Part shown: piece after piece, positions 5,761 to 56,614 of the stretch
Layout of the letters: each line of letters opens with the position of its first letter
How positions within the stretch are numbered: position 1 is the stretch's first letter
Source: Chrysomallon squamiferum
Taxonomy: Eukaryota > Animalia > Mollusca
DNA length: 64,000 nucleotides
Assembly (NCBI GenBank): GCA_012295275.1
Contig: CM022670.1
Coordinates: forward strand, 23,126,001 to 23,190,000
Direction: 5' to 3'
The notes under the pieces: generated by a model
Databases searched by the model: none
What the model was told of the DNA's origin: nothing
Seen by the model: only the letters and a program-made list of their open reading frames with translations
Translations under genes and position numbers: made by a program

Positions 5761-5831
5761 GTATTTGTCAATGCGAACGACAACGCGATGATCAGGATTG
5801 AAATGATAGCCAGTACCTGAAATGGAGGATG
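5761..5831 (+). promoter_or_regulatory. Intronic inverted complement of the Kv2 3' splice site and S1 codons (candidate ECS)
   Basis: 5778-5831 pairs with 8382-8435 (51 Watson-Crick, 2 G:U, 1 U:U); 5766-5776 pairs with 8440-8450. Confidence 0.85.
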
Positions 5832-7306
5832 CATGCATCTTCTGTCCCCCTCCCCTTTCATCTCATAATCATTGTACATTATTTTATTTAATCATAAGCC
5901 ATTTCTATGTTTCATCTCATTTTATATGTCATTATGATTATCATTTTCCTCCTGGTTTATCTCATTCGATCACATTGCATTTTATTGCCTTATTTATAAC
6001 ATTTTTATTTTTCCTCTGTTTTGTTTTTATTTGTTTTTCCTCAGTATATTTCTATGATGTCATTTTCCACTTTTCCTGTATTAAATACCTGTTGCTGTCT
6101 TTGAATGTTTTTAATGGAATCATCAAGTTAATTTTTGTTACTTGTCTGTTTAAATGTCAATCACACTATTTTCCAGTGTGTTCTTGCTTCTGTCTAAACC
6201 CTGTTTCATTCATTGCAAATGCTTTTCACATTCCATGTTTTAATTTGTGATGAAATATCAGTACACAAGTTCTAAATTTTTATATTCAGAAGTTGTTGCA
6301 GTAAATTTCTCTTGCATATACCTTCTTCTGTTTCTTATACAGGCATTATTCAGTAATGTGCTGTCAGTAACATAAAATGACATCATAGAAATTTTGACTT
6401 CATAAAACACTGTTAATAAATTTTTATGACAAAGTAATTTAGTTTCTTTGGTTGGTTTTTGTTTTAATAACAAAAGAAGAGAATTTTAATTGTCATTATT
6501 TCATGTTCATACTTCCATGTTTGTTTTTATAAATGATTCCAAACACTTGACATTAAAATTCTTATGTCTGGTGTCAGACATGTTTGGAGTCATCAAGGAA
6601 TGGTTGAAATGATTTGATCTAAAGGTATTCATGATTTACAAAACGTCAAATTATCGATTTCTTTTTCAGGTATGTTGACTGTATTGCAGTTTACTGTATA
6701 TATTTTGTGTTGTGCTGAATGTTTGTGAATTTAAATATGTGTTGTAATATTAACACTTTAATTCATTAACAATGTTTGAATGATTTTTTGAAATGTTACT
6801 AACATAAATGAATTTGTTTTACTGTTCAGCAGAGAATTTTAGCATAATACACATTACATTAAAATAATATTAATAATAAAGAAAATATAAAAAATACAAA
6901 ATGATATTTACAAATAATTGAAGTCATATTAATTACATACTTCTTAAATTCATTGGCTGATGCATATTTAAGAACAAGTTTATCAAATGTATGACCCTTT
7001 GAATTAGTTGGAAAAAATGTTGATCATACATTAATCACTAGATAATTTTCTATTTTATTTACACAAGATATGAACACTGAAAGTTTATAAATGTAACTAG
7101 CTCACAGAGGTCACTGTCAGGCCAGGATAATGCTGATGAATGTTAATGGTCTGGGAAGACATAATTGGGTTTTATCAATATCAAATTAACATTTTTGTCT
7201 CTCTTTGTATTAGCAATTTGTGAGCCATAAATTAACTGATGTTAAGGTCTGGCAATTGTTTTTAGCTTTTTACATAACTTTACATAAAATTATCAGAATA
7301 AATCTG

Positions 7307-7357
<51 letters not shown>

Positions 7358-7746
7358 TTATTATAAAGTCATTAAATATTTTTTATTAATTCTAAATTTT
7401 TTATTTTTTGAGATTAATAAGGTTAAGAAATTTTTTTGAGTGTAGTGCATAATTGTTGAAATATATTAGTTTAAAATGTAGATTGTATACAAATGAAGCA
7501 ACGATAGATTAATTTCAATTATTGAGACTGTTTTTAATGCATTACTGTAATTAAATATGATAATGTTTTTTTGTTTTTTAAATTATTATTTAAACTTCAA
7601 CATATCATTTACAACTTATTCCATAAAAGTATATTTTGAATACTAAACTCTCTTTTTATTCCAGGAATGTGTAACTTTGTTGTTGTTTTCTTTTTCCAAT
7701 ATATTTTCATGATTGATTGCTTGCTTGCTTGGTTGTTTCTGCTTCC

Positions 7747-8058
7747 ATGAAAGCGTGTCATCATTCATATTTCCAGTACTCCTTTCTGCTTGTGCTTGAT
7801 CAAATTTGTAACAGCGCTTCTGTTTTACTGAAAGCTTGTGTGAACTCATTGGTGTTTGAAATGGCAAAAATATTTTTACTTTTTTCCTCTCCTTCGTAAA
7901 TATCGGAATCTGCAGCGCAACAACATGTATACTACCTTCATTTCCTGTACAGCACACATTACCTGCCTGAACATTTTCTTCTTACCTTCCTTCCATCGTG
8001 ATCGTAATCTTTCTTCTGCCTCTCCTAATAAGCAGCTGTCACTGTTGCAAATATGCTA
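7747..8058 (+). promoter_or_regulatory. Degenerate collinear inverted complement of the Kv2 pore/S6 region (candidate ECS)
   Basis: Nested helices 7782-7811/9089-9117, 7901-7925/9041-9065, 7946-7963/9012-9029 and 8046-8058/8875-8888. Confidence 0.7.
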
Positions 8059-8396
8059 TCATTGCTCTTATGAGATGTCTAAGTCGTAACTTCAATGAAA
8101 TAAATCTCTAACTATTCTTTTTTATCTGGTGTTTTTAAATTTGCTAATATACCTTGTCAGGTTCTCACCTTTTGTTGTCTGTATTGTAAAAACATTCTTA
8201 TATGTAAACCAAAAATGTTGATCAAAGATAATTTTTGAAATTAAAATTATATAAATATATAAATTATAACAATGATAAACCTCGTATGTATTTGTGAACC
8301 ACATCAGTTTGTGATGCTCTATACAATATGGTTAAGATAATATTGTCAAGTTGGGCTGATTCCTTATGGTTTTCACTTGTTCATCCTCCATTTCAG

Positions 8397-9473
8397 GTGC
8401 TGGCTATCATTTCAATCCTGTTCATCGTGTTGTCGACAATCGCATTGACATTAAATACCATTCCGCAACTCCAGGAGCGGACAAACCCCATTGAACCTGC
8501 GGATAACGCCCGTCTTGCAATTGTCGAAGCTGTGTGTATAGGGTGGTTCACACTGGAATATTTAGCCAGGTTTTGGGCGTCCCCAAATAAATGGAAATTT
8601 TTTAAAGGCCCATTGAACGTAATCGATCTGTTAGCCATTCTTCCGTATTTCATATCTTTAGGTTTGACTGAAACGAACAAAAGTACTACAGAACAGTTTC
8701 AAAATGTGCGCCGTGTTGTACAGATATTTCGAATTATGAGGATTCTAAGAATTCTAAAACTTGCTAGACACTCCACTGGTTTGCAATCCTTAGGCTACAC
8801 TTTGCAAAGAAGCTACAAGGAGTTAGGATTGCTACTAATGTTTCTTGCCATTTCAATCCTTTTATTTTCTAGTTTAGCATATTTTGCAGAAAAAGACGAA
8901 CCAGAAACAAAATATAAAAGTATCCCAGAGACATTCTGGTGGGCAGCAATCACCATGACCACTGTGGGATATGGTGATATTTATCCCAAAACTGGTCTTG
9001 GCAAAATTGTTGGTAGTGTGTGTTGTATATGTGGTGTTCTTGTTATTGCTTTGCCGATTCCTATAATAGTGAACAACTTTGCTGAGTTTTACAAAGATCA
9101 AATGCGCAGGGAGAAAGCGTTTAAAAGGCGAGAAGCCTTAGAAAAAGCTAAAAGGACTGGCAGTATCGTGTCCTTTCATTCCATCAACCTGCGTGACGCC
9201 TTTGCACGCAATGTTGACCTCATTGAGGTCAACTCCCAAGGTCACAAAGAAGAGGGTTCTGATGTGTGCAGTGAACGAGAAAAGTTCGTTTCCAGTCCTC
9301 ATTTTGGTACATCGAAAAACAACGAGACGCAGGATCAGCCCGCTCGGGAGACCGACAGCAGCGATGGCACCCAGTTTAATCTGACCAACAGCAGCACCAA
9401 CAACCTTCTGGATACAGACGAGGAATCACTCAACAGAATGGCATCGCAGCCATTGCTGAATGCTCAGACTCAG
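8397..9473 (+). CDS. Shab: Shab/Kv2 (KCNB) voltage-gated K+ channel, large internal exon S1-S6 plus proximal C-terminus
   Basis: Acceptor tttcag|GTG and donor CAG|gtataa, 1077 nt, phase 0/0. Encodes S4 [21 protein letters not shown], filter TTVGYGD, S6 ALPIPII (Kv2-type PIP) and [24 protein letters not shown]. Confidence 0.96.
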
Positions 9474-11118
9474 GTATAATGATGTAGTTTTTTTTTTTAA
9501 ATTAGCGGCAGCATAATTCAGACATAACTCAAACATCTCTCATGTAATAAATTTGGGGCTTTTATTTTATTTTTTTTTAATATTCTTTATATTTTATTAG
9601 TTCTACAAGCACAGTCTATAAATTTCTAACACAAACTATTGATTTAAGTCATATTAAATAATTTATTATCATCATCATCATCATCATTACAATCAAATTA
9701 TAAATATTTTATTTTTTTTTATTTAAGTTTATTTATGTATATAATTTTTGTTTTGCATTGGGGTTTATATGTCTTTTTTTTAAAAATACATTTTTTTATT
9801 TTTTTTATTTAAATGTCAAATAACAAAAGCACTAAACAAGGCTGCAGCTCTCTGTTTCTCTGTTAAAGCAGATGACTCACAAATGACATAATCAACATCA
9901 GATCACTTAAAGTATATCTCTATGGAACATTTTCAGTAACTGAGACTCCCTAATCCTCTGAACACAGATCTCACAATGTCTCACTGCTAGTTTCAGCTTT
10001 TAGGATGACTGAGTTAACATTTAGTTGAAATACTAGAAACCATACAATATATAATTATTAATTAATGTAAAATATTTATATGAAAGCCATTACAGTTAAA
10101 AATTATATCATATTACCTGATTATTATTAAAAATTAAATGATCCTATGGAATCAACTGTCCATAAATGAGCAGGAGAAAATAAATAAACCTACCAGTTTC
10201 TTTATAATGTAATATAACATTATATATTTTTCTTTCACAAACCTGCTGGTTCAGAAATTTCCAACCAAAATATACCTCCATCTGCCTCTGAAAATATGAA
10301 TAGATGAACTGAATAGAAACAGCAATATTAGCTAAATGTGTAAGATGTAGTTTTCTTTCTTTTCTTAGAAAAGGAATAATTTTAGTGGATTCCAGTTTTA
10401 CAGTTTAGTTTAAAAATGGGTGCTGTTGTCTTATATAATAATAAATTTATATAACAAGTAAGATCTTCTCCCAGTTTTTAATGTTATTAGATATTCTGTA
10501 TTGTTATTCTGAATATTCAAAAGATTTGCTAATTTGTGAAAGTATGCCGACTTGAACTGATAACTCACAATTAGGTTATTGTTTAATGGCTGTTATCTTT
10601 GATGCTTATTCGAAATAATGTACATTAGTTTTATTTTAAGTAAAAAAATCAATAAATTAAAAAAAAAAATTCACAGAAATTAAATCAGGATATAGAAAAT
10701 ATTATTAGAAAAATGGATTTTGTTGTAAATATACTTTTGAATTACCAGTACCATGTAGTGTTTTTTGACTAACATTTTATATGGAGGTGTATGTACACAA
10801 ACACACACCATTTTACCCCCAAATAATCTTCTATCATTGGACATAAACATTTACAATGATTCAGTTAGTTGTTTATGTTTTTAAAATAACAGTGTTTTTT
10901 CCAATTGCTGGAAAAATTATACAAGAATGAACATTTATTTATTAAACGATACCTTTCTACTAATGATTATCAAATATAAGGTTGTTGTGTAATGATGTTG
11001 TTACTGAAGAATATAGTTACTATCCACTTCACTGGCAACAGATAAACTTCTGTTTTTTAATATATTTATCATATATAGAAATATATCATGACCATTAATA
11101 AGTCAGTTTTGAGTCATG

Positions 11119-15065: not shown

Positions 15066-17248
15066 ATTGTTGCCCTGTTTAATGTAACTGTCATTTGTTA
15101 GGCTTAACTGTGAAAGACTGTTCAGTTAGTCACGTTCTCTTTATGTCCTCTTTAGATGAATCTCCCTACTTTTTTACAGAATTGTGGGTGGAATGATGGT
15201 AATGAATCACTCTAATAGCTGTCAGTTTCACGTTTGTGTTTTATGCCAAGATTCAGAATTAGGTTCAACAACCGTGGTGTTTGCATAACAAAAGAAAACA
15301 AAAACGATGAAGTTTTTATCTTTTTTAAACACTTCAACAAGCAAAAAAACAAATCAGTCTGTTTGAAAGGAACTTAATTCTACTGAATATTCATGCTCAC
15401 CAGACTCTGGCACAATACAGAAGTCTGTGCTGTCAAGCTTAAAGAGTGTGAAGTATTTATTACAGAGAAAAAAAAAAAAAACGTAATCAATTATTTTTGG
15501 ACAGGAAAGAAAGAAATATTTTATTTAATGATACACATTTTTAATCTATGATTGTTGGGAATTAATCATTTGGATAAGTTCCAGAAAAATAGAAAACCAA
15601 TCTGAAGGGCTACTTTTTATTTTATTTTATTTTTTTTACTTGAGAGAAACATAATTTCATAAGAATATTGTACTTATCTTCATAATTATGAAGCACGAGG
15701 TTTAAGAGGAAAGTGCTAACTGGGAATGATGATCCTGCCATTGATCATGCAGTAGACTCTTGAATAAAATCTAAAATAGGACAAATTACCCTTAGTATCA
15801 CATTGCATGCTGATATAATATATCTTTCTAAAATCTCATTTCAGTTTGTGATTAACATATGTAATTATTTTATTAAGGCCTCAGAAAGGAAATGCCTCAG
15901 TGTGAAATTTTACAGTTTTCAGAATCTCTGCAAACAAACAGTGTCTTAGTATGTACAAAAATCAATATTAATCTACGTGAAGATTTACTTTCTATCAATT
16001 AACTGACTCTGAAAATTTACACTTTAAAAGCAGAGGTGAATAATGAACCAGTGTTTGGATGGAGTTCTCCATGTGAAAGGTCAAACCATTGACATGAATC
16101 TACTAACTAGAACGTGAAACCTTTGACTCTGACAGGTTTGTAAAGAGAACAGAAATTTTCATTAGCACACACTGATATAACTTACAACAAGGTTTGCCCT
16201 AAACTTTATTGCCTGGTATAGTCAAATTCTTTAGAATGGAGATGGTGTAAAGGCACCATAGGAGGAAATTAGCATTGATTACATTCTCATTTTAAAGCTA
16301 TTTGGTCAAATGGTGATTGGTCAATATCTATTTTAACTGACCAAATTTAATTCTAAAACTGTTAGGCTGTTACTTGAGAAAATGGAAAATTGTCTTCTAA
16401 AAGAAGAAAGGGTATTGACCTTTGAAATTTGATGATAAAACCTTTGGAAAATGCCAGCTTATCAATAAAAAACAAATTTGAGAATTTGATCAGTGTAATT
16501 GCTATAGCAATCTGATTTCCAAACAGTTCACTTAACTGAAATGATATTTTGTTTTATTTAATTATAGCAGAAAAACAGAAAGCTGCAATGCCTTGGTATT
16601 AAAATTTTAGAAATTTTGTAGTCAAACATTATTTTTTCATATAGCATAACTGTTTTATTAATTATATTTGAATAAGTTTACAATGAATTATAACAATTTA
16701 AAGCAACAGTTCTAAGCAGATTATATCCCCCCCCAAAAAAAAACATACACAAAAACAACAACCAAACCAAACAAACAAAAACAACATCACATTTATTACC
16801 TTCAACCAAAATCTAAGTCTAAGCTGTGGCCCAGACAATAATTTTGATCCTGATATTTTCAAATTATCTTTGTTACATTTATTTCACCTTATAACCTTAT
16901 TTAAAATTTTAACAAATTTTATATTTTTATTTTATTATTATAAATTATTAGTTTTTTGGGGGTTTTTTCAAACAGAAATGAAACCATTCTATTATTATTA
17001 TTTAATATTCTTCTTCTTCCTTTTTAATTTAATTTTTGTTTTCTTTCAATCATTTATTCCTGTTGTTTTATTATTTCTAATACTGGAAAATATGTATGCG
17101 CTGAATGTTAAATTCTCTTCTGTAGTTTATAACTTGCCTCTCTTGGGTTGGAATTTTTCAGTCTCCATCAGACACTGATAGATTTTGTATTCGTGACTCG
17201 AGGAATAGAAAACCAACACGAGTGACACCTTATCACTGAGTCCGCAAA

Positions 17249-18133: not shown

Positions 18134-18824
18134 GGTAGGTATGACCCAGTGCTGCCAGATAAAAGTTGCATCGAAATGAAACAGCTTCACCGCCAAACGA
18201 GCTCAACTAGCACAGACACATATGCCAGCTGCACGACCCACCCCCAGGACAGTCCCTCCAATCTGGCTCAGCCCATCACCACTGACAGTCCCAAACACAA
18301 TCTCTATGTGAACCCTCTTGACGCCCCTTCTCGACTGTCTAACCCTCCTCAGTCACACTGCCCACCGTTTCATGGCCATTTCAACGATTTGCATGAGTAT
18401 TACAATAGCCAGCAGCAAGAGACTGGATTTAACAGACCGAGTGTTCAGTTCTGCCCTAACCAAGTTGTTCAGAAACTTGACAGTGGCTTGACGACGACAT
18501 GGGAGTGTGAGAATCTCGTACCCAATCCTTCACCGACAAGTGACTCGGGAGGTGTGGTGAGGCAGCTCCGCCCGACTCTGCCTCCTCCAAAGAAATCCAG
18601 CTTTAAACGATACAAATCATTATCCGTGGAGAAACATCCGCGGTTCGCAGATATCATTAATGAGAGAAACTGTTCTTCCACGGACAATCTCCATTCTCAG
18701 GAGTTCATAAAACCAAAGTTAAAGTTTCGAAAGGCGGTTTCGTTGGCAAATCGTCTGCATGCAAGCAGTCCATCAACAGGCAGGAGGCTTGCCAACTATC
18801 ACCTTATAGCAAACACAAAATCAG
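18134..18824 (+). CDS. Shab: Kv2 C-terminal exon containing a PRC/FFAT-like motif
   Basis: Acceptor tttag|GGT in phase 0 matches the previous exon; donor TCAG|gtaaga is phase 1. Open, GC-elevated, Ser/Pro-rich frame (ORF 18149-19036). Confidence 0.85.
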
Positions 18825-21558
18825 GTAAGACTTTAGTTATGTCCTTGAGAACCAATCAACAAGGCACAATGTGCATGATTTATGCTTCAGTTTATGTTAA
18901 TTTTAATTTATTAATGTGTGGTGGGAATTTATTAATATTATTATTACTCCCCTTGTCATTCCTGTATTCAACTGCACAGAAATCTTTGTTAGAGTTAAAA
19001 CACCCACACACAATCAATCTGCATGGTTTTAATTAGTTTTGGGTGGAGTATAAACACTCCTGGTTTTATAATTAATATTTCAAATTAAGGATAATACAGT
19101 ATTCATCTACTGTAATGAAATTAGATATTAAATCAAATAACATTCTGAATATTTTACTGAAATCATATCAGTCACTACTGATACACTGAATAGAAAATAT
19201 ATTGGGTTTTTTCTTTTCCTTTTTAAATCAATATGTCAACTACATAATGTAATAATTTACTCTAAGACATTACTAATAGATTTTGTCTTTGTCTGATGGT
19301 TTGTATTCAAGTTAGGTCTTAATAACTTAAGTCTCTAGCTCAACCAAGACCATAAAATACACTCTGTTAACAGTATTCCTCACTCTGCTGGAAAAAGTAT
19401 ATAAAGATTTTTTTGCTCTTAATAATTAAGATTAGTCTTAGAGATGATGACAGCAGGATTCCTGTCTTAGATTTTATCACTGCAGCAGTTCTTATCAAAT
19501 AAAAATATGATGTGGTCTTGTTCAAATCATTTTTTTGGTCTTTTTTGAAATTGTTTTCTAATGATTCATATCAAATATATATAAATACTTATTAATACTA
19601 CTACAAATACTACTACTGATAAGTAAACTTGTGTGCATTATTATCTTAAAACATCACTTGACAAGATAGCCACATTTAAATATTCCACTAAATACTATTT
19701 ATACACAATAGACATATATCAGTATGAAATTCTGCACAACATTAAACCGTGTATGGTATTTTCTTAAATTATTTATTTGTTAATTAAATCATTATCAAAT
19801 TACAGATTCCGGAAACAATTTTACAGCCAAATAAAAATTTGTTTTTATGTTTAAGTAAGAAAACAGTTTCAAACGTTTTTTTTTTTAAATTCTCTCAGTT
19901 CTATCAAATCATAATTTTATAATTTTTTAAAATAATTATTGATTATCAAACAAAACAGTCCATAACCTTAAAACAACAACAACAAACAAACAAAACCTCT
20001 TTGAAGAAACACCAGACTATTTATTCTATTGAGAAAAACAGATTTTCTAGACTTTCCAAATATTGGTGCCATTATCACTTTTTCTATGCTATGAAACACT
20101 TCACTAAGCATCCAAAACCACAACAAGCAGGCAGCACAATTTCCTTAATTCCACATTTGCATCAGTTTCTAGTTCTCAAAGATGGGTAGCTTTTCTGCAC
20201 CATTAAACAAAATCCATATGTCTAAATGCCAGAAGAAACTGTCAAAACACTGGTAACATGATCTATGGATTTATGAAATATTAATAAATCACATTCATCT
20301 AATTCTTTATTCTAAAATTTATTTTTGGAAATTAACTTTGTTTTCTTTCTTTTCCAAACAAGAATAGAAAAAAAAAAAAAAAAAAGAATACAAAATTTAA
20401 TGATTTGTGAAATTGTTCCAAAATTAATTCATGATGAAAGAATAGTGAAATGAAGAAGAAGAAAAAAATATTATGAACATACATACTTTAATAAATGACA
20501 GAGATGACAAATATTGACTCTTTTTTTGTTACATGTAATTTAAATTTTAAATAGCCAAGTTGAAAATGTTAAAAAAAAATTTAAAAAAATAAAAATAAAA
20601 CAATAAAAAAAATATTGAAAATAATAAATAAATAAATAAATAAGTAAATAAATAAATAAATAAATAATTAAACAATTTGCATTTTGACATTTCCAAATTC
20701 ATTCAGTGGATTATTCATATTATTTTTATTATAGATATATATGTATGTATAATTCATTTAGCATTAAATTTAATCGTTTGTTTAGTTCAGATTTTAAAAA
20801 CATCAGTATTAACAAAATGAGCTGATTTATCTATTCCTTTATTTCTTGTTTAATAGGAAATAATTCAGTTTCTTTTGTTAAATTTGGAAATCTATGAAAT
20901 TTTCATAATATTATTTTATTTTATTTTATTTAAATATCTACTTCATGCGACCAGTAACACGTTTTTAAAACATATTTTACATAGGACAAATGCAATCTGA
21001 ATTTTGTCCATTCAAAAATATATATTATCTTGTATTGTACAAAAAAAAAAATGGAGGACATTAAATAACAATAACAACAACATTACTGCTAAAAAAGTTC
21101 CTTTCATTTAAAAAAAAAAAAAAAATTATTTATATAAATCTCTTTCTCTGTGTTACACAACCTGTAAAAAAGAACCATTATGAAAAAGATAGTTCCTTTA
21201 TGAAGATTACAAAACAGAATTAAGTTCTAAAGAGTGGTCACAAGTGAAATCATGTAGAAAATAATTACAAGAGAATCTGAATTACTAATTTCTTAATGTT
21301 TTTCATTTGACCTGAATCATTATATACTTATCTAAAAATTTAAACAAGATCCTTTGTTTAGCTTTCCTTTTTCTGTTCTATTTAAAATAATTATGTAAAG
21401 AATATATATTATTTAACAGGAGACATAAAATGAACTACATTTTGTGGACTAATGTTGACCATTAATTCATTCATCCACAACTCTGATATCACACTTAGTT
21501 TCCAAACTTTAGTTCCCACTCCAGGGTTAAACTGCACGTTTGATGTAATTAGATTTTT

Positions 21559-21591
<33 letters not shown>

Positions 21592-24353
21592 CATCATTAA
21601 CTTTGCATTCCTCACCAAATTATCTTGCAGATGAAACTTTTCTACTCAACTGAAGAGGTGAGTGGTGTAATTCGCAAGGAAGGGCGCTTCATGTAATGAC
21701 AGAGCACATGCACTGGTGTGACCTGCACAAGAGCAAGTAGTAAAAAAATTCCCCCAACCCAAAATGGAGCACCAGCTAATAAATTAACTTTTATTTCATT
21801 TTTTTTTTTTTAAACAAAAAAACAAAACAAAAAAACATTATATGTAATCATAATTGCATGTAAAACAAATGTATGTGTAAATCATGGTATATGTATGCAT
21901 ATATACCATGTTAAGGACAAATTAACTAATTTTTCATAATAAACAAATACTTTTACAAACAAAACTATATTGACATAAGCTCTGCAGTTCACCAGGGTAT
22001 TTTGGCTTGTTTCAAACTCCTGCGAACTAAATGTGCTTTTGGCTTCATTCGTCTAGTGTACTGGTCAAGCTGTAGTATGCCTTGTGAATATTCATGGGCT
22101 TTTTTTTACATCACAGTTGCGCTCCGGTTCATTGTTGTAGTTCTTTAGAACACCCCTGCCCACCTCCCCCTCTCTGCTTGACCATGTCTTTCCCTCACTT
22201 CCACAGCCGTTCACCTCTGCTTTTGTGATGGTCACACCAGTCCAGCGGTCCACCTCCCCTGTCCACCCGCCCAGCCAGTCCACCCTGACACCATACTTGC
22301 TTTACCACTAATGTCTTATATATATGTAGTTAATATAATACATTTTCAAAAATGATTATTAATTGCTGATCATTGATGTTATTGTATTCTGAAAAACGGA
22401 AATATAATAAAGTCATTTGTATCAGAAAAGAACAGAGCTGACATTAAGTAAGCTAAATTCATAATGAGAGCATTTCTCATGTTTAAAAATTGTTAAATTA
22501 CTAACATGAGTGAAATAGATTAACATGATGACAAATCCAGAAAAAGTTAATATAAAAATTTAATTCAAAGAAAAATAAATTTGGTGTGAATTATAAAAAA
22601 GTTTTAAATCATTGAACACTTGAATTCAATTTCTCAATTATTAATTATCATTTTTTAATTTGCATAGTAATAAAAGAAATGTAGCTATGCTAAGTAGTGC
22701 AGTTTTGTGTAGTGTTGCTTAAAATAATTAAAATAAAAACAAACAGTATTCCACTTTTCAGTACTTTATGACTTTGGACATCGATGGTGGGTCAGACACA
22801 AATTATTAAATAAAATATTTGTTATTCACAAACTAAAATAGATATATTAAATTAATAGTGCTTCCTTTGCTTTGAAAAAACATTCCGCATAGAATGAGAG
22901 ATCTATCACATTGATTCAGATATTTGACTTCAGCAAATTAGCATTTTTATACATAATCTTTCAGCAGACTTTTTATGTATAATTTCATATTCATTCAACA
23001 AGATAATCTAATATCCTTTCTTCATTTTCTGTTTTTTTTCTGTTACTTTTCAATTTTCTTAATTTTAGAAACTTTGCAAATGTATTAAGTAAATAATACA
23101 TGGGGATCAAACAGATATTTAGCAGTTTTTATGTTTGTAAAAACAATTAGTTTAATTATTTTCTTTAATAAGGCATTCAGTGTTTTAGAATAATGCAAAA
23201 TAACTATGAGCAACAGGTTTGTAAAACTTTAAAACAAATTTATTTATTTATGTATTTATTTATTTATTATATTTTTTATGCATGTTATGCAAATTCAGTG
23301 TACATGTTTCTTACTCTGTTGAAACTATAATTAATTTTTTCTGTACTGACTATCTTAATACTAGGAATTTTGTTTTTAGTGTAAAGTTATCTCAAGATTG
23401 TCAGGAATCTAGTTTGGCCACAGATGGTTAATCAAAAACTGAAATCTCTTACTGCTAACTGATAGAAACACCTTGCAGAGTGACATCAGCTTATCAGCAT
23501 AGTACAAATTCATATATTCTGCAATTAATAATAGTTGTCAGTACAAATTAATTCACAGTTTTGTTAAATAATCATTCAATCTTTGACAAGTGGTAAAAAT
23601 GTTTATCATTTACATTGAATTAACATCTCATTTTCTTTATTATTAATTGCACGTTTGAGTTGATACAAATTGTACCAGATCCTCTGAGACTGAAAATGTT
23701 GTACCTGTTCTGGCCTAACATCTTATGTCCCTTCCTTTTTGTCCATCCTCTCATCTTCATTGGTATTAACAAGGTGAAGGAGGAATTCCACAAAATGTAT
23801 TTCTGTCATAAAGTTATTGTACCTTTTGCTATATGAAATATTTGGTGTCTGTTGTTTAAAGCAATGATGTTGTTTATGAATGTACTTACTTGAAATTTTT
23901 CTTCAGATTAAAAACAAAACGGAAGAAAAATAAAGAAACTTAGAATCATTTCGCATAATTTAAATGACTGTATTTGTTTATTTTGATTAAATCATATATA
24001 TATATATTTAAATTTTAAAAATATTTTTTTTTGTTTTGTTGCAGTAATAATTTTTTTGAAGACTTGTTTTATTGAAGTTTTAATTTTATATCATATATTA
24101 TATATACATATATAATTTAATGATTATTAAAATTATTACAGTTTTGTATCTCTGGAAATTGAGCTTAATCTGATATCTTCATTTTAACTAGAAATATTTA
24201 TAATTTAATATACATATCACAGTATTTGTTTGACATTTATGTCACAGTTTTTTTTTATCATTGCTTTAAAAAATAACTAATAATAAGAATAATAATACAA
24301 AAAATATTTAACATTACTTGTCAGTTAAATCTCATTTCTTTGTTTATTTACAG

Positions 24354-25153
24354 GTTCTCTACCAAACAGCAGACACAACTTGGACCAGGTAAAACACGAA
24401 AAGCTGTCTCCTGTCCAGCGATCTAGTCCATGTCTGTTTGAACCTTCACCTGCTAAAAAAAGATCTATTTCAAAAAGAGATGCTTATGACTGTGAAGAAA
24501 CTGAGAACCTTCTTCTGGCTGCTTGCAGCCACGGTGAGTGTCCAGAGGTCACGCTTTCTGCCCGGAATGGAACTATTTGTGATAACAGTATATACTCTAA
24601 TTCAAAACTGCAGTACCCGAACAGTATCCCCAAACAGACTGCCACGCAATCAGGTGACCAAATTCAACCCACCACTCTAAAGTTCACGAACATCGAAGGT
24701 CCTGAGGATGACCATCAGCTGTTCTCACTGGGCAGTCCTGATCGATCAGAAGAGGACGTTGAGTTCAGTGACAGCATGGCGAATCATGCCAAAAACACCT
24801 TGCTGTGGAAAGCCAATCGTACGAGGCCGATGACATCACCAATGTACGACACAAGCCCGTCAGACAATTTGGAAAATGATGACAGTCTAATTTATTCAAA
24901 TTCTGCTGATTATTCTGCTTTCTCAGACTCCAGTCTTTCTGACCCAAATCTTCTGCGGTCTTCCCCATCAAGTGACCTGGTCAGTCGAACTGGGGGGAGT
25001 CGAACAAGTGGAGAGGACCACACAGTGAGTGTGTATGACACAGCTGAATCAGGGCCTCCAGACAGTGATTCTAACATGGACAGCACTGTTAATGTGATTT
25101 CCTCAGACGACAGTAGAGATCTGACTATAGTGTTTCCTGATTCTAGTGGATAG
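24354..25153 (+). CDS. Shab: Kv2 terminal coding exon
   Basis: Acceptor tttacag|GT completes the phase-1 Gly codon and continues in the frame of ORF 24380-25153 to TAG. Ser/Asp-rich tail. Confidence 0.8.
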
Positions 25154-27037: not shown

Positions 27038-27566
27038 TAGTTTATTTAAAAATAAATTTTGCATTCTGTAGTAATATTAACAGTTTATTAAAAAATAAAT
27101 TTAACATACTACAGTGACAATTTATTAAAACAGATTTTGTATACTAAAGAAAAGTTTATAAAAAATAAATTTGACATACTAAAGAAAAGTTACTAAAAAT
27201 AAATTTTACATATTAAAAGAAAGTTTATTAAAAATAATTTTTACATACTAAAAGTAATTATTTATTAAAAATATAATTTACCTACTGAAGAAAACAACAG
27301 AATTTCGATGCTAAAGTATTAGTTTGTTAAAAACAGATTTTACAAACTAAAGTGATAGTTTATTTTCTAATTATTAGATTCAGTATTAATCAGTAGATTT
27401 GAGTTACTTGTCTAACAGAATGGAAAAAAAAACAACAACAGAATTTAGATGCTAAAGTATTAGTTTATTAAAAACAGATTTTACAAAGTAAAGTGATAGT
27501 TTATTTTCTAATTATTAGATTCAGTATTAATAACTAGATTTGAGTTACTTGTCAAGCAGAATGGAA
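27038..27566. repeat. About 30-bp minisatellite followed by an about 140-bp tandem duplication
   Basis: Repeated agtttattaaaaataaattttacatacta-like units; acagaattt..atgctaaagtattag...gaatggaaa occurs near 27296 and 27437. Confidence 0.75.
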
Positions 27567-29731
27567 AGAAGCATGAACGTGGATTGAAAATAAAAATGTG
27601 TTAAAACTGAGACTTTGTTACTTTAAATACCAGTGAACTGAATGGATCATATTACAGTTATTAATTCTTGAGAGTTAAATACACATTATATTACAATTAT
27701 ATACGTGTGCAGTGTATATTCCCATTAACTTTCAGATGTTTCATTAAAACAGAAGAAAACTAGTTACACATAGCTTTGTGCTGTTTGGAATGATTAATGT
27801 GTTTGGTTGTTGTTTCCAATATTGTTATTCTGATAAAGAAGAGAAAAAAAAAAATGATTTGAACTTTTGAAAGCATGTTTTTTTTTAACTCTTTGGGTGT
27901 GTGTTTTGTGTGAGTATGCACATATTTTGTATGTGTGCCTGTAGAGTCTGTGTAAATGTAGATTTGTGAGTGTATAAAAAAGAGAGAGTATTTGGAAAGA
28001 GTCTGGGTGTGGTATGCATCACTGTTTCAAAACATTAACAGCAGACTAAAAATATTAGTGCCAGTAAACATAGTTAGCAAAACTAGAAGTAAAAGAAAGG
28101 TTAAAAAATAGCATTTAGTACAGAAAAACAAGAAAACAAACATGTCAGCGAGTGAACACGTGTGAATTTCTGAACACAGATAAATGTGTTTCATTCGTTA
28201 ATCAAAAAACTTTTCTTCGTCTCATCACAATTAACAAACTTATTTTTTAAAATCCTTTTACATTTTCTTTTCTTCCCATTTTTAAATTAATTATATACTC
28301 GAGTCTTGCCTGACAGATTCTAACAGGTGAAAACAAACACATACCTGTTTTTTACTTGCAATGTTCCATTTGACTTTTTACAGTCCATATTCTCAAAAAA
28401 TATCATAATGTACTAATTTTTAGTTCTGTGTTTACAGCTGTTCTTTATTTTCAAAATTATATTTAGTTGTTCAGAACAAGATTTAGCTATAATTAACTTT
28501 TGTATTTAGTTTTTGTGCACTTTTTATTTATCTTATTAAAAATTAATTTTTAAAGAATACAAAAATGCTAATTATATAGTTTATTTTGATCTCTTTCCTT
28601 TTAGTCATTCCATTATTTTAATTTTATTTCTTTTCTGCTATTTTTATTCAATTTAACTGATTTTATTTACAAGGTCACATTTTACAGAATAATGAAAGGA
28701 TTAAAAAATTGCTAGTGTTTTTATCTTCATATCATCTTATTTTCTCTAAACTGTTGTTTTTGTCCTTCATATATTAACTTACTATTTACAAAAATACCAT
28801 TTTTATAGGAAAATGAAATGAGCTTATTAACTGGCTTTTATATTTACATCCTGTTGATAAATTAAAAAAAATAATTGAGGTCCCAAATAATAATAAAAAA
28901 ATTATAATAACAAAAACGAAATTTACAAGAAAAGAAAAACACAAAAAATAATAATTCCTTCAAATTCTGTCATTTGTTTCTTTACTCATTTTGTTTTATT
29001 TTTAGCTTAGAATTCAATAAACTGTGTTAGATACAAATGTTTTTCTGACAAAACAAAATAAAATATTACATATATTACACTGTTTATTTGAGGTTTACTA
29101 TGTATTTAATTTACACATCATGGTTTTTATTATTATTATTATTCAGAAAACAAAATGGCCATCAGTTGTTATATTTTTTTTTTTTTTTTTTTTTTTTTCT
29201 CTTAAGTTGCATATTTAAATTGTTTGAACTGTTTTCAGTTTCACATAAACAAAGACTCAGGTTAAGAAAATGTTATTAAAAGATAACACAAGATTTGTTT
29301 TGTATTTATCCTTTAGGTAGTAATTACTGCTGAGTGAATTTTGGTTTTTGTTATGAAAGAAAACACAGAGCACCTAAAACAAAAGATTTCGCTTAATTTT
29401 ACAGATGAGACTTGAACATGACATACACACACACACAAATAAGAATAAAATAATAAATAAATACAAAACAAAAATATTACTAATAAATAATAATAATGAA
29501 ATTAATGATAAATAATATATGTAGGTATGTATGTACATAAAATCTTTCTTGAAATGCAGATAGAAAAATATAATTTTTAAAGAAAAAATAACAACCATTA
29601 ACACATAAAAATAAATAAATAAATAAATAAATAATTGAAAAACCCCACAAAAAAAAATGTCATTTCCATTTATATTCAATAAAAACAGCCTATTAACTGT
29701 CTTGAACACAATACCAATAAACATATCACAA

Positions 29732-40400: not shown

Positions 40401-41875
40401 CCTATGTTCCCCAAGAGCAACCCCATTCTGATATAAAATTCATTTTTAAAGGAATTGGTTAATTTACTGTTTGGAAAAACATTTTGTGCTCAGTATTAAA
40501 TTTATCATAAATAATACAAAAAAAAAAAAAAAAAAAAAATAAAAATATAAAGAATAATGCAGCAGTCTAATTGTCATATTTCAGAGAAACAGACCAGTTT
40601 TATTAATTCTAAATAGTAAAAGTAATGTGAATGAATTGCTGAAAGATTTAATAATCTAAATATACAGGATGTTACACAGACTGAAAGAGATCATTATATA
40701 TATGTGACCAAATCACAGATGTCAGCTCCAGATTAATCAGGTTACATTGCTCATTATAGAATAACACAATTTCTAAAATATAACTTTTTACACCTTACAA
40801 GTTAAATCAATTATATTGTCCATAATGAAACTGGTCCCTTATTTTGAAAATATGCATAGAAAAACTGAAAATTCTTAAAACCTAAAAATGTCCGGACCAT
40901 GTAAAATGTTTGATCTGGAGGTGTGTTCTGTTTACTGAGGTTTTTCATGTTAAAAGAAGTGCAAATCAAAGAAAGGAATGCAGAAATCCTTCTGTTTTAG
41001 AGAAAATCTTTTTTAGTGAGGAACAAGGCATGTTGAAAAATATTTCTGTATTGCAAATAATGTAACTGTGTATAATTGCTTATGTGGAAAAAGAAAGAGA
41101 AGAAGAAAATGCTTGGGGGAAAAAATACCATGTTATGGCTTATATCATGTATACAGTATTTCAGCAGAAATAATGTTAGAAGTTATTTATGTGCTCTTTC
41201 ATTTCTCATATACATCTATCAGAGAGAGGCATCAACTGTAATTACTTTCTGAGGTGTAATTATTATGGTAATTTGTTTTATATCAGGGGTGCTCCAACTA
41301 TGAAGAAATGATGAGATACCATCAACTTGCATGATACTACCAATCTTCATAACTTGGCAGCAACCTCTTTAGAAAAGCCTTATTTCATCTAGGTATAAAA
41401 ATAATCCCATTCTTGTTTCTCATCCTTACTTCGTTCATTTAAATAAAAAAATCTCATTCTGTATCTCATTCTTACTTCACCCATTTATAAAAAAAAGTAT
41501 CTTTTACTTATTTTACTCAATTATACAAATAATTTTCTTCTGTATTTCATACCAACAGCACTCAGTTTAATTTCATTCATATTTCACTCACTTATAAAAT
41601 AATCTTTTACTTATTTCATCCAGTTATGAAAATAATTGTATACATCTTTCACTCAGTTATAAAACAAAATAAATGTATATTTATTTCACTGTTAAAAAAA
41701 CACTTAACATTCCGACTCTCATACATACTTCATTCAGGTATACAAATAAAAGAATACCTATTTCACTCAGATATAAAAATAATATATTTCTTTATTAATG
41801 TGTTTTGGTTTGTTTGGAAGATTTCTGTGTTTGTTAACAAATAGGAACTAAGACCTGCAGAAATGATTAACTCAC

Positions 41876-41951: not shown

Positions 41952-42676
41952 CTGAAAGAGACAATAAAAAAAATAATATATATATATATGCTCAAACAAA
42001 ACATTTTTAAAACAAAAAGAGATCTGAAGAAAACATTTACAAAGAAAAACAAAAAAACAAAACAGAAAAAGTTCTAACCTTGACTTGGGTTCTACTGATA
42101 ACAAGCAAAATCAACAATTTTCAATATTTTCTTTATCTTTTGTTTTTCTTCTTCTTCTTCTTCTTATTTTTTTTTTGATTTCAAAAATAGGCCATTGATT
42201 CTCAACTGTTAAGATGCCATTGAAAACACATAAACTGTTTCCAAACACAATCAGTATATTTATTAGTCTTCAGTTTTCATGTCCTAGTAAAAAACTGATA
42301 TTTGTAAGACTCAATCATGACTGAATTAATAAAACATTTTACCATGCTGAATAACATCATGATAGTCTGTACTACTGAAGATCTTTTTTGTTAACAAAAC
42401 AACATGAGAAAAAAATAAAATAAAAGTACTTTAGAAGAAATTTAAACCACATGTGTCAATTACAAGTTTTATTGCCAGCAACAATTTTCCTGAAATTGTG
42501 CATATTTTAGAAATACTTTTATATGCCATAGAGAATTATATAAACAAAACCTGGTTTCAAAATAAATACAATGTGGCAGCAGCTTGAATCCCATTTAATA
42601 TTTTAAAGGTAGAATGATTCTTGCCTGTACATGGCATAGTTAACCAACATGCAACTGTGTGATGAGAATAATTTAG

Positions 42677-43275
42677 TTTACTTGATTCACTGATTATTTC
42701 AGTGTAGAATAAATGAACATATGTGTTGATATGTAACAGACTGCATGATATATATTAATATTTTAATTGTATGTAAATTTAGTCCACTAGTTTCACTGAT
42801 TGTTTCAGTGTAGAATAAATGAACACATATGTGTAGATATGTAACAGACTGAATAACAGATGATAAATACTGTAATAGTATATATATTTAGTCTACTTGT
42901 TTCATTCATTGTTTCAGAGTAGATAGAATAAATGAACAGATATGTGTAGATATGCATGATATATTATAATAGTTTAATAGTATATAAATTTGGTCCACTT
43001 GTTTCACTGATTGTTTCAATATAGAATAAATGAACCATATGTGTAGATACTGTAATAGTATATAAATTTAGTCTACTTGTTTCATTCATCGTTTCCAAGT
43101 AGATAGAATAAATGAACAGATATGTGTAGATATGTAATAGACTGCATGATACATAATAATACTTTATTAGTATATAAATGTAGTCCACTTGTTGTTTCAG
43201 TGTTGATTAAAAGAACAGATATTTACAGATATGTAACAGACAGCATGATATGCTAATACTTTCATAGTATATAAA
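42677..43275. repeat. Tandem repeat, units about 90-125 bp
   Basis: About six copies of tagaataaatgaacagatatgtgtagatatgtaacagactgcatgata-like sequence. Confidence 0.85.
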
Positions 43276-50530: not shown

Positions 50531-50718
50531 ATTTGTTTAGAAGTAGTTTCGTATCTTCTAAGATAATAACTTTTTAAAAGAAGATTTCAATAAAAATAGA
50601 CGAAATTATATATTTATTATTATTATATATGTATATACATTATATTAAAATGTATTAGCTATTATTAATAAATATTATCATACGAAACGATAATTATTGA
50701 CTTCACAAATTTTGCAAG
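50531..50718. promoter_or_regulatory. Shared divergent promoter and 5' UTRs of UBE2W and BPNT2
   Basis: 188 bp between divergent ATGs. Confidence 0.7.
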
Positions 50719-51042
50719 ATGGCACCAGTGAATGTCCGCTTGAATCCTTTTGGGATGGTGATATTTGTTTTAGCTACATTATGCATATTGTTTTATTTGT
50801 TTGGTCTTCCATGGTTTTTTCCAGGAGAGCCTCGGGTCAGTATGAGAGAACTGTTGTCAGTCAGCATCGTGTTAGCACAGCGAGGTGGCATTATTGTACG
50901 CGAAATTGCGAAGAACCATACACTCAATGCAAAACAAAAAGGACTGACTGACGAAGGAAAGAAAGAATTATTGACAACAGGAGATATGGAATCACACAAA
51001 GCTATATATTATGGATTCGCAAAGGCGTACCCAGGAATGCAG
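50719..51042 (+). CDS. BPNT2: Golgi PAP phosphatase (IMPAD1/gPAPP) exon 1
   Basis: MAPVNVRLNPFG plus hydrophobic signal anchor, KGLTDEGKKELLTTGDMESH; donor CAG|gtaata. Confidence 0.93.
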
Positions 51043-51151
51043 GTAATAAATTATCCAATAAATTAAATAGGAAGTTATAGAATTAATTATTCTATATTAT
51101 ATATAAAATCAAACCCAAAGTGAAAGTTATGAAACTATTAAAGCTAAACAG

Positions 51152-54727: not shown

Positions 54728-56614
54728 TTTATCACAATCATGTGATTTTGCTTCTAATATTTAAACAATTTAGTTATAAAAAAATCAATTAACAAAATAT
54801 TAAACTGTTTGGTAGTTTTACTAAACGGTTCAATATTTTGTTAACAGATATTTTTACAAAATATTTGTATATATGTATTAAAAAACGAAATAACACTGTC
54901 ATTATATGTTGTATCTCAGAATGAGTGAATCAAAGAAAACAATATAAAACAGTCAGTACTTAATATTTGTAAAAACTTGGAAAATGTTATCAAGCAAACT
55001 TTTGTATCATACATTTCAAACACTTTAACATTTATTCCTAATAACTCATTACTGAACTAATTTGTTTTTAATCATTTCACTTGAATAATTTTAAAGAATA
55101 TACCAGTTTCAAACTAATAGAATAGAATGAAGATAATAGCAGTTGTTATGACTTCACTGAAGATGTCTTTTGGTGAGTGGGTTAATTGTGCTGTTTAAAA
55201 CTTTATTTTGTTATATTTGTAGGTCCAGGTTTTATATGTAAATCATGTATTTTTCAAAAATATGTTTATTAGCTTTTCTTTTCTTTTCTTCTTGTTTTTT
55301 TTTTCTTAATTACATGCAATTAATTTATTATTATTACTATTTGTTTACAAGCTCAGAATTGTAATAGTTATGAGGAAGAATCTTTTTTTTTTTTTTTTTG
55401 ATGCTTGGATTTGGTATGCAAGAAAGTGTCTTCCAAATGTTTGTTTTTTCTTGTATGAACAAATGTGTTGATGTGAATATTGTTTTGATTTCATTTGTTT
55501 CATACTCTTATTATCATTTTTAACAAAAGGCCAGTTGTTTCTAGTCTCATTTTATTATGCATAATTATCTACAGCAATTTATCTGTAGAAGGTGGAAGGA
55601 GAATAAAATTCAAATCATGAAGTTTAATATTCCATTTGATTTTACCTTAATGGAGACATTAAGATTTATAATTTGTGATCATGTTTAAAATTCTTTTATT
55701 CATGATTCCTTTTGTTCACAGACCAAGTTGAAGGTAAAAACTTTGAAAACAGTATCACTAATTATTAAAACTGAATTGAGCACTTTAAACCAGCTTGAAG
55801 AGGTATTTTTGGCAGCAGTGTAGTAATAATTTAAAAATATTCTCTTGGTCAACCATGTTCTATTGTTTCAAAATATTTTGAGTTACATGCAACCTGTTTG
55901 TGATAGAGCATAAAAACAAATTATTATTTTTAATTAAAACTCTTTTATTTGTACTGACACATGTACACTTTAAATTAATGATCAAATTTCTTTATTCTTC
56001 TAAGTTACTATTTTCTTTTGAAATGACTATCAATCCTTATTACAAAATATGACAAAGTGATATGGTGCTATTACAAAACATGTTAGCACTGCCATTTTAC
56101 CACTTCACAGCTGACATTACTGTTTACACAGCAGATTGGTCTGCTAAAGAAAAGCTTCTGTTATTATATTTAATTGTTTAATAAAACTGGATGGCAAAAA
56201 ATAAATAAACCATAACTCAGAACTAAGCAGTATTTATTTGGACTTTTTTCATATCACCAAAGATCCACTTTCAAACCTATTGTGTTATCTGAATAATCAT
56301 AAACTGTGAACAAATACCAATATAACTCTGTAATCTTATATATATATGTGTGTTGTATATTATGTGATATTTATCTTCACATGTGGTGAATAAAACATTA
56401 CTTGATAAAGTATTTATTTTAACTGGTTGTCATTTGATATATAATTTAATTATTATGTGTCACAAAAATGAATTACTCAATGTAGACAATCATAATTATT
56501 TATTTATGCAAATATTTCTTAATTACTTGATAAATATTCAGTTACAAAAAGATTCTTTTTGTTTTATTTACATATTTTATCAGATAGGATTGAATCTTTT
56601 AACTGGACCCATTT

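Follow-up and report, generated by a model that had tools for sequence, protein, structure and literature searches.

The Kv2/Shab Exon and Its Splice Acceptor

The region studied is a 64-kb window from Chrysomallon squamiferum (contig CM022670.1, positions 23,126,001 to 23,190,000 of the forward strand; all coordinates below are those of the window), which contains an exon of the Kv2/Shab potassium channel gene. The intron ahead of this exon holds two sequences complementary to it: E1, an inverted copy of the intron/exon junction and of the codons of segment S1, and E2, a predicted editing-complementary sequence (ECS) for segment S6. The exon encodes S1-S6 and the proximal C-terminus in 359 codons and is phase 0 at both ends. 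It matches human Kv2.1 (E value 1e-135) and the Pfam domain Ion_trans (E value 1e-57), and in the tree it groups with gastropods (100/95), beside, not inside, the Pomacea and Elysia/Bulinus group. No T1-domain exon was found upstream of 8397 within the window.

Eleven sequencing runs were listed, nine from organism A and two from organism B, and four of them were examined over 7400-9600. Both RNA runs examined, X6 and X9, share an identical spliced loose end of the upstream exon at 8396, so that the AG at 8395-8396 is the acceptor in use and the exon starts at 8397. RNA contigs span 8396-9473 and then continue at 17162, and no RNA joint or loose end at 8474, behind the next AG, is listed in the contigs of these two runs. 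The features of the junction are as follows.

8395..8396, + strand: used 3' splice-site AG (RNA loose ends in X6 and X9); A8395 is predicted to pair with U5818
8397..9473, + strand: Kv2/Shab exon (Ion_trans, RNA contigs, gastropod clade)
8473..8474, + strand: next AG downstream, just past the E1 helix; its use would give an in-frame loss of 78 nt (26 codons, S1)

A Predicted Near-Perfect Helix over the Acceptor

5761..5831, + strand: E1, inverted copy, within the intron, of the acceptor/S1 junction (core of 54 bp at 5778-5831, extended by 11 bp and 5 bp)
8382..8458, + strand: E1 partner arm (last 15 intron bases, acceptor AG and first 62 exon bases, with S1 codons)

The core of E1 (5778-5831) and its partner 8382-8435 can form 53 pairs over 54 positions in one register (i + j = 14213), the only positions outside Watson-Crick pairing being the wobbles G5785:U8428 and U5814:G8399 and the mismatch U5792:U8421. 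The helix is extended by 11 bp (5766-5776/8440-8450) and by another 5 bp (5761-5765/8454-8458). All of this was recomputed as it had been given in an earlier sequence-only reading of this DNA, extensions included. No inverted blastn match in the window ranks above that of E1 with its partner arm (E value 1.2e-18, low-complexity filter on), and E1 matches nothing else there. Its tile score is -117, with a mean of -23 and a standard deviation of 7.9 over the 1274 window tiles, and the longest helix covering the acceptor measures 54 bp as against at most 19 in 100 intron shuffles. The predicted energy of the helix is -118.7 kcal/mol on the sense strand versus -110.1 on the antisense strand. In this regard, it had been pointed out that two of the three substitutions keep pairing on the sense strand only; both transitions do yield sense-strand wobbles, but this has a chance expectation of one in four and deserves little weight. 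None of the adenosines in the helix is opposite a C. No Rfam family was found for E1 or E2 at E values up to 0.1.

In organism A the E1 core was recovered from DNA run X2 and RNA run X6, with three differences each, the same number as in the window. Organism B shares 0.03 of the sampled words, and one of its contigs (3979 nt) has an inverted match to 8382-8435 with two differences in 54 (52/54), which takes in the 15 intron bases, so that the cover of the acceptor is kept. At 2883 nt past E1 the same contig has a same-strand match to 7846-7971 (the spacing in the window is 2015 nt), the 126 nt differing by 18 substitutions and 10 gaps; no other piece of it aligns (80%) to 7400-9600. Judging from these alignments, E1 is kept in place and orientation in organism B and is held more strictly than the second block. 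The sequence-only reading had proposed that absence from close relatives would mark E1 as a recent neutral inverted duplication. This is not the case, given the inverted copy and the second homologous block in organism B, and recent neutral copying is unlikely because the intron of that organism keeps 52 of the 54 positions.

Elsewhere, the best S1 partners reach z -4.5 at most (47 loci) versus -13.1 here. Two of these loci have imperfect complements of the acceptor/S1 junction in the same place, far weaker than E1: one in the first 140 nt of L056 (z -4.5) and one about 6.7 kb upstream in L073 (z -4.3). In L001, of the bivalve clade, the last intron bases (1121-1138) closely resemble window positions 8379-8396; 1138 nt of upstream DNA were covered at this locus.

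A Predicted Guide for the S6 Ile/Val Site

7846..7971, + strand: part of the intron that aligns with organism B (18 substitutions, 10 gaps) and holds E2
7901..7966 (about), + strand: E2, predicted ECS for S6 (core 7905-7963; C7921 faces A9045)
9012..9061, + strand: S6 coding arm, predicted partner of E2 (cofold pair probabilities mostly >0.9)
9045, + strand: candidate A-to-I site, A of ATT, Ile217 in S6 (A:C mismatch in the predicted helix)
9015, + strand: first position of the Ser207 codon AGT, in a UAG context; corresponds to the Ser-to-Gly site of insects and cephalopods and is predicted to pair with U7960 of E2

The best partner of the S6 region (9010-9080) was 7851-7970, the top of the 1274 window tiles, which coincides with the block conserved in organism B. 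When the two excised stretches were folded together, 7905-7963 paired with 9012-9061, placing A9045 opposite C7921 and A9015 also inside the helix. The energy of E2:S6 was -56.1 kcal/mol, while the best-of-intron shuffles gave a mean of -38.5 and a minimum of -42.1, so that all 30 were beaten by at least 14. Among 25 exon tiles the strongest two were S1 (z -15.3) and S6 (z -6.9); tile 8800-8855 scored z -5.1 and is taken for a false positive. The local exon fold around S6 was weak (-18.4 kcal/mol over 121 nt) and folds shifted with the span folded. None of the listed substitutions of organism B falls within 7903-7924, the stretch around A9045, and RNA run X6 carries G7915A in E2, which turns a G:U into an A:U pair. 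At the level of sequence, E2 has the features of a putative ECS, namely intronic complementarity beyond chance, conservation and covariation.

Six exon differences were seen across runs, five of them at synonymous third positions; A9045G alone is non-synonymous, changing Ile217 of S6 to Val. The X6 RNA contig has a G at this position; an A is read from the window, from DNA run X2 (another sample) and from X9 RNA, where the site lies 3 nt from the contig end and beside a gap (9034-9041). On the reading proposed below, G9045 would be an edit and not an allelic difference. A9015 reads A in the contigs of both RNA runs. The spacing of Tyr196, Ser207 and Ile217 is that of bumblebee Y512, S523 and I533, and Ile217 is the same residue as the other Kv S6 Ile/Val sites (Kv1.1 I400V, bumblebee Shab I533V, Drosophila Shab I681V, cephalopod Kv2). 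According to the portions of the cited papers drawn on here and below, the Ile-to-Val edit at bumblebee Shab I533 is common to Drosophila (I681V), cephalopods and mammals (PMC6453909, PMC9989829), reaches up to 98% in insects and has been called the sole recoding site conserved across metazoa (PMC6453909); in Kv1.1 it gives about 20-fold faster recovery from inactivation (PMC3265383). Of the 153 homologues carrying the motif, Ile occupies this position in 144 and Val in 9. One protein of a gastropod-like cluster, P0122 (58 aa), has Gly in place of the S6 Ser and Val in place of the Ile, as would be expected of an edited transcript.

Positions 8964-9077 also match Rfam RF00485 (K_chan_RES) at 72.8 bits (gathering score 51). 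This match is probably driven by likeness of the coding sequence; the exon-only hairpin presenting the Ile codon showed many non-standard pairs and weak local folds here, and, unlike in the all-exon hairpin of mammalian Kv1.1, the predicted partner of S6 is intronic.

S6 Complements in Other Animal Loci

Eighty loci were retrieved and 47 scanned, the 33 omitted being near-duplicates, hits with short flanks or distant paralogue-like hits. In 10 of the 47 the best partner of S6 lies upstream of the exon at z -4.2 or below: L001 and L002 (bivalve clade), L013, L014 and L015 (unplaced clade), L037 and L057 (with the copepod Caligus), L059, L007 (insect clade) and L065. In the window and in L001, L002, L013, L014 and L015, the exon is 430-1260 nt downstream of this partner, and the equivalent of A9045 is opposite C in four of these six loci and opposite U in two. 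Twelve consecutive positions are paired in all six (72 of 72 cells); the exon codons are identical over these positions, with an overall exon identity of 0.70-0.88. The third-codon position at offset -4 shows all four Watson-Crick pair types and is paired in 11 of 12 loci. For the site helix, 97 of 108 cells were paired, as against 31-69 when it was slid.

It must be noted that the pairing registers come from each locus's own fold, so that these pair counts lean towards the model, and that MAFFT put the window E2 out of register with the five other elements, so that homology rests on the fold-anchored registers. Ranked by energy, the S6 tile came first among 13 in all of 11 loci, which had been chosen for having a hit, the tile itself being GU-rich. 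A non-S6 tile outranks S6 by z in L001, and in L011 the best S6 partner is downstream at z -5.2, chance-level scores near z -5 being known to occur.

In the arthropod-clade Kv2 loci, the upstream-intron complements of the S6 Ile codon region lie at about 4.5 kb (L007), 1.2 kb (L037) and 1.9 kb (L057) from the exon, with the target A paired to U. A weaker one lies about 3.2 kb upstream of the exon in L042, L043 and L045.

Comparison with Known Systems

An ECS upstream of its target has been reported for BLCAP. E2 resembles the ECSs of ADAR substrates, such as Shaker e1-e3 (PMC2606942), Syt1 (PMC5705066) and the Q/R sites of GluA2 and GluK2 (PMC5654063), in being conserved and imperfect with the target A mismatched, but it lies upstream of the exon, whereas the elements of Shaker e1, GluA2 and GluK2 described in those sources are downstream. 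The closest parallel for E1 is the donor complementary sequence (DCS) of Drosophila para, which sequesters a splice site and tunes editing: its deletion lowers editing, and its extension raises editing and causes a splicing defect, as described in part of PMC4299485. Both are intronic elements over a splice site of an edited exon, with a separate intronic ECS and a multi-helix structure, and E1 shares its intron with the predicted ECS for the adjoining exon, as the DCS does. Unlike the DCS, E1 masks the acceptor, not the donor; E1 and E2 are both in the upstream intron; the E1 helix is about 70 bp and near-perfect, its partner is 2.6 kb off and 650 nt of exon precede the edited site. Strictly, the masking of an acceptor places E1 outside the definition of a DCS, but it likely works like one.

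A second group of comparable structures are the editing inducers of Gabra3 and GluA2, in which a long stable stem stands in cis to a shorter, selectively edited stem; E1 differs from them, as far as the consulted text of PMC5654063 goes, in not being adjacent across an internal loop and in that one of its arms is coding sequence plus splice site. Finally, ADAR-bound duplexes at 3' splice sites (RELL2 and CCDC15, PMC7404189; PMC5991522) likewise cover the pyrimidine tract or the acceptor; the cases described in those sections control alternative exons, often via Alu elements, while E1 is single-copy and its exon is needed for the channel.

The structures behind squid Kv2 editing were described as unknown in 2009 (PMC2606942, in part). 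In the openly available papers searched, no description was found of E1, E2 or a structure directing Kv2/Shab S6 editing. Distal ECSs within 2.5 kb have been predicted genome-wide in the fly (PMC5319793), and an ECS for fly Shab may already have been predicted in that paper or in its source pipeline; the Shab table rows examined hold no ECS coordinates.

E1 as a Proposed Brake on Splicing

The order of the elements is E1, E2, acceptor/S1 and S6, so that the predicted E1:S1 and E2:S6 helices would cross as a pseudoknot. The acceptor is about 430 nt downstream of E2 and 650 nt upstream of the target, and therefore splicing would break up the substrate for S6 editing. The removal of introns is known to restrict how long an ECS is available (PMC5991522, in the part consulted). 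We tentatively propose, at somewhat less than an even chance, that the main role of E1 is that of an acceptor-side splicing brake which keeps E2 attached until S6 has been edited. Once the acceptor is transcribed, E1 would pair over the 3' splice site and the helix of about 70 bp would hold splicing back. With the intron still attached, E2 would pair with S6 and guide ADAR to change Ile217 to Val at A9045, and ADAR or a helicase would finally open the E1 helix, freeing the acceptor. We infer that both helices form in the cell, that E1 slows the removal of the intron and that the resulting delay raises editing. A structural role suits E1 better than that of a selective target, because its helix has no A:C mismatch. 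The sequence-only reading had raised a brake acting until editing is done, and it had missed A9045 and E2, which now give this idea a concrete target and a predicted guide in the same intron.

Several observations weigh against this proposal. The intron part of the helix is 8382-8396 only, the upstream pyrimidines and the branch-point-like CTGAT at 8356-8360 being outside; the acceptor AG and the S1 codons are covered as had been claimed, the polypyrimidine tract only in part. G9045 is found in one contig of one run, the DNA compared with it being that of other individuals, and X9 RNA reads A. Five of the 13 listed substitutions of organism B hit paired positions of E2, and four of these five would break pairing with the window exon, although the alignment is gappy in part. 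An E1-like helix was seen in none of 30 other animal loci with a usable acceptor, a set with zero gastropods and with at least 2.6 kb of upstream DNA in 16 loci, and the longest acceptor-covering helix there was 21 bp; from sequence, E1 looks like a lineage-restricted element. Since there are E2-bearing animals without E1, and insects still edit strongly, E1 would be at most a lineage-specific tuner. In addition, a 54-bp helix with so few flaws would be expected to attract unselective editing, that of the acceptor A included, at a cost in mRNA. Lastly, S1 edits elsewhere are on record or likely, and E1 could simply be their guide. In this respect, the squid Kv2 cDNA P0129 differs from six others of its cluster in changes of the A-to-G type, among them Ile-to-Val at the codon equivalent to that of A8424, and a Drosophila editing table has Shab I480M, which subtraction from I681 puts near S1 (PMC5319793, supplement 13, in part).

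These squid and fly changes lend themselves to the view, in our opinion unlikely, that E1 is mainly an ECS for S1 in neurons (A8406, A8409, A8415 and A8424; Ile to Val, the codons named by the sequence-only reading), with acceptor masking as a side effect or helper. All four adenosines lie inside the E1 helix, and the complementarity and the conservation in organism B suit it equally well. On the other hand, the squid change is possibly a mere species difference, and direct support is missing: no A-to-G was found at 8395, 8406, 8409, 8415 or 8424 in the contigs of both RNA runs, one of which reads G at S6, although contigs hide minority edits and the tissue is unspecified. Nor was any seen in the E1 arms, again in contigs that drop minority variants. 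All four would be A:U pairs, with a 5' C at A8409 and A8424, and a helix so perfect would be poorly selective, fused stems being known to spread editing (PMC5654063, in part).

It is quite unlikely that the E1:S1 helix is instead an editing inducer, a landing pad for ADAR that raises E2:S6 editing without any splicing delay. Its length of about 70 bp, near-perfect and free of A:C mismatches, would fit, stems of about 45 bp raise editing at neighboring sites from either side, including Kv1.1 I/V (excerpts of PMC5654063), and the crossing helices would bring the E1 and E2 stems close. However, in the known inducers only an internal loop stands between the inducer and the edited stem, whereas the E1:S1 arms are about 550 nt and 2 kb from those of E2:S6 in sequence, and acceptor cover would be unnecessary, yet it is present in E1 and kept in organism B.

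There is also a small chance that E1 is a splicing switch, in which the acceptor is masked or edited and either the intron is retained or the AG at 8473-8474 is used, with loss of S1, tuning the amount of working Kv2. A8395 lies within the helix and has a CAG context. The AG that follows comes 15 nt beyond the helix end and is in frame, although being in frame is a one-in-three coincidence. Some 500 editing sites in human 3' acceptor sequences are able to change splicing, which is mostly repressed by ADAR-bound exon-intron duplexes (PMC5991522, in part). Both RNA runs nevertheless show the normal junction only, with no 8474 joint and no G at 8395 listed. Contigs that cover the intron end in unspliced form, and E1, do occur in run X6, but intronic contigs in an RNA library may be DNA.

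We gave no weight to these X6 contigs (7761-8425, and 794 nt over E1, with no cover past the donor at 9474, where X2 continues) as a sign of intron retention. The 7761-8425 contig enters the exon by 29 nt only, contig depth does not give levels, the library may hold DNA and X9 has no such contig. A circular-RNA role for E1 was likewise rejected, as its arms do not flank an exon.

The slightest chance is that of a neutral inverted duplication, a repair or template-switch scar not yet decayed: single-copy inverted junction copies do occur and E1 is known from two species only, but the sequence of organism B (52/54 in E1 versus 18 substitutions and 10 gaps in the 126-nt E2 block) already largely refutes it, and the intron of E1 also holds another conserved element, directed at an editing site already known. 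The roles of S1 guide, inducer and splicing switch can coexist.

Significance of E1 and E2

E2 is a concrete candidate guide for the Kv2/Shab S6 edit, located in the upstream intron of a non-cephalopod mollusc and with counterparts in bivalve and arthropod loci, which make an ancestral versus a convergent origin testable by genome comparison. E1 speaks to the timing problem of any upstream ECS, whose intron may be spliced away before the target is edited; if it is a brake, it would be a clean, single-copy, acceptor-side splice-site clamp coupled to recoding. Taken at its widest, the proposal is that a gastropod Kv2 acceptor-complementary sequence, the mirror of the para DCS, is pseudoknotted with an upstream ECS and delays splicing until the pore is recoded, and that the ECS position is common to gastropods, bivalves, copepod-like crustaceans and insects, so that the S6 Ile-to-Val edit and its guide would be protostome-ancestral and not repeatedly invented. 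In this full form we consider it rather doubtful.

Other Features of the Window

In both RNA runs 9473 joins an exon at 17162, and the protein ends after 25 codons (exon 17162-17239). The long C-termini of oyster and gastropod Kv2 have matches at 18134-18826 and in part of 24329-25153, the former stretch also matching squid Kv2, and the C-terminus likely exists as short and long isoforms. An inverted repeat of 47 bp (17249-17295/18700-18744; 87%, E value 1e-6, -52.6 kcal/mol with flanks) has one arm in the 3' untranslated region of the short isoform and the other in a coding exon of the long isoform. It is modelled as a third possible long-range pre-mRNA helix, which could bear on terminal-exon choice or on editing.

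Farther downstream, the frame at 50701-51066 (121 codons, hydrophobic start) had no Pfam hit; we take it to resemble the first exon of a Golgi inositol-monophosphatase. Nested inverted repeats are present at 43969-44005/44723-44759 (37 bp) and 44163-44191/44661-44689 (29 bp), and a hairpin of 86 nt at 54774-54859; these are possibly the ends of small transposons. Degenerate tandem arrays with units of about 105-150 nt occupy 42670-43275, 27047-27570 and 41463-41787.

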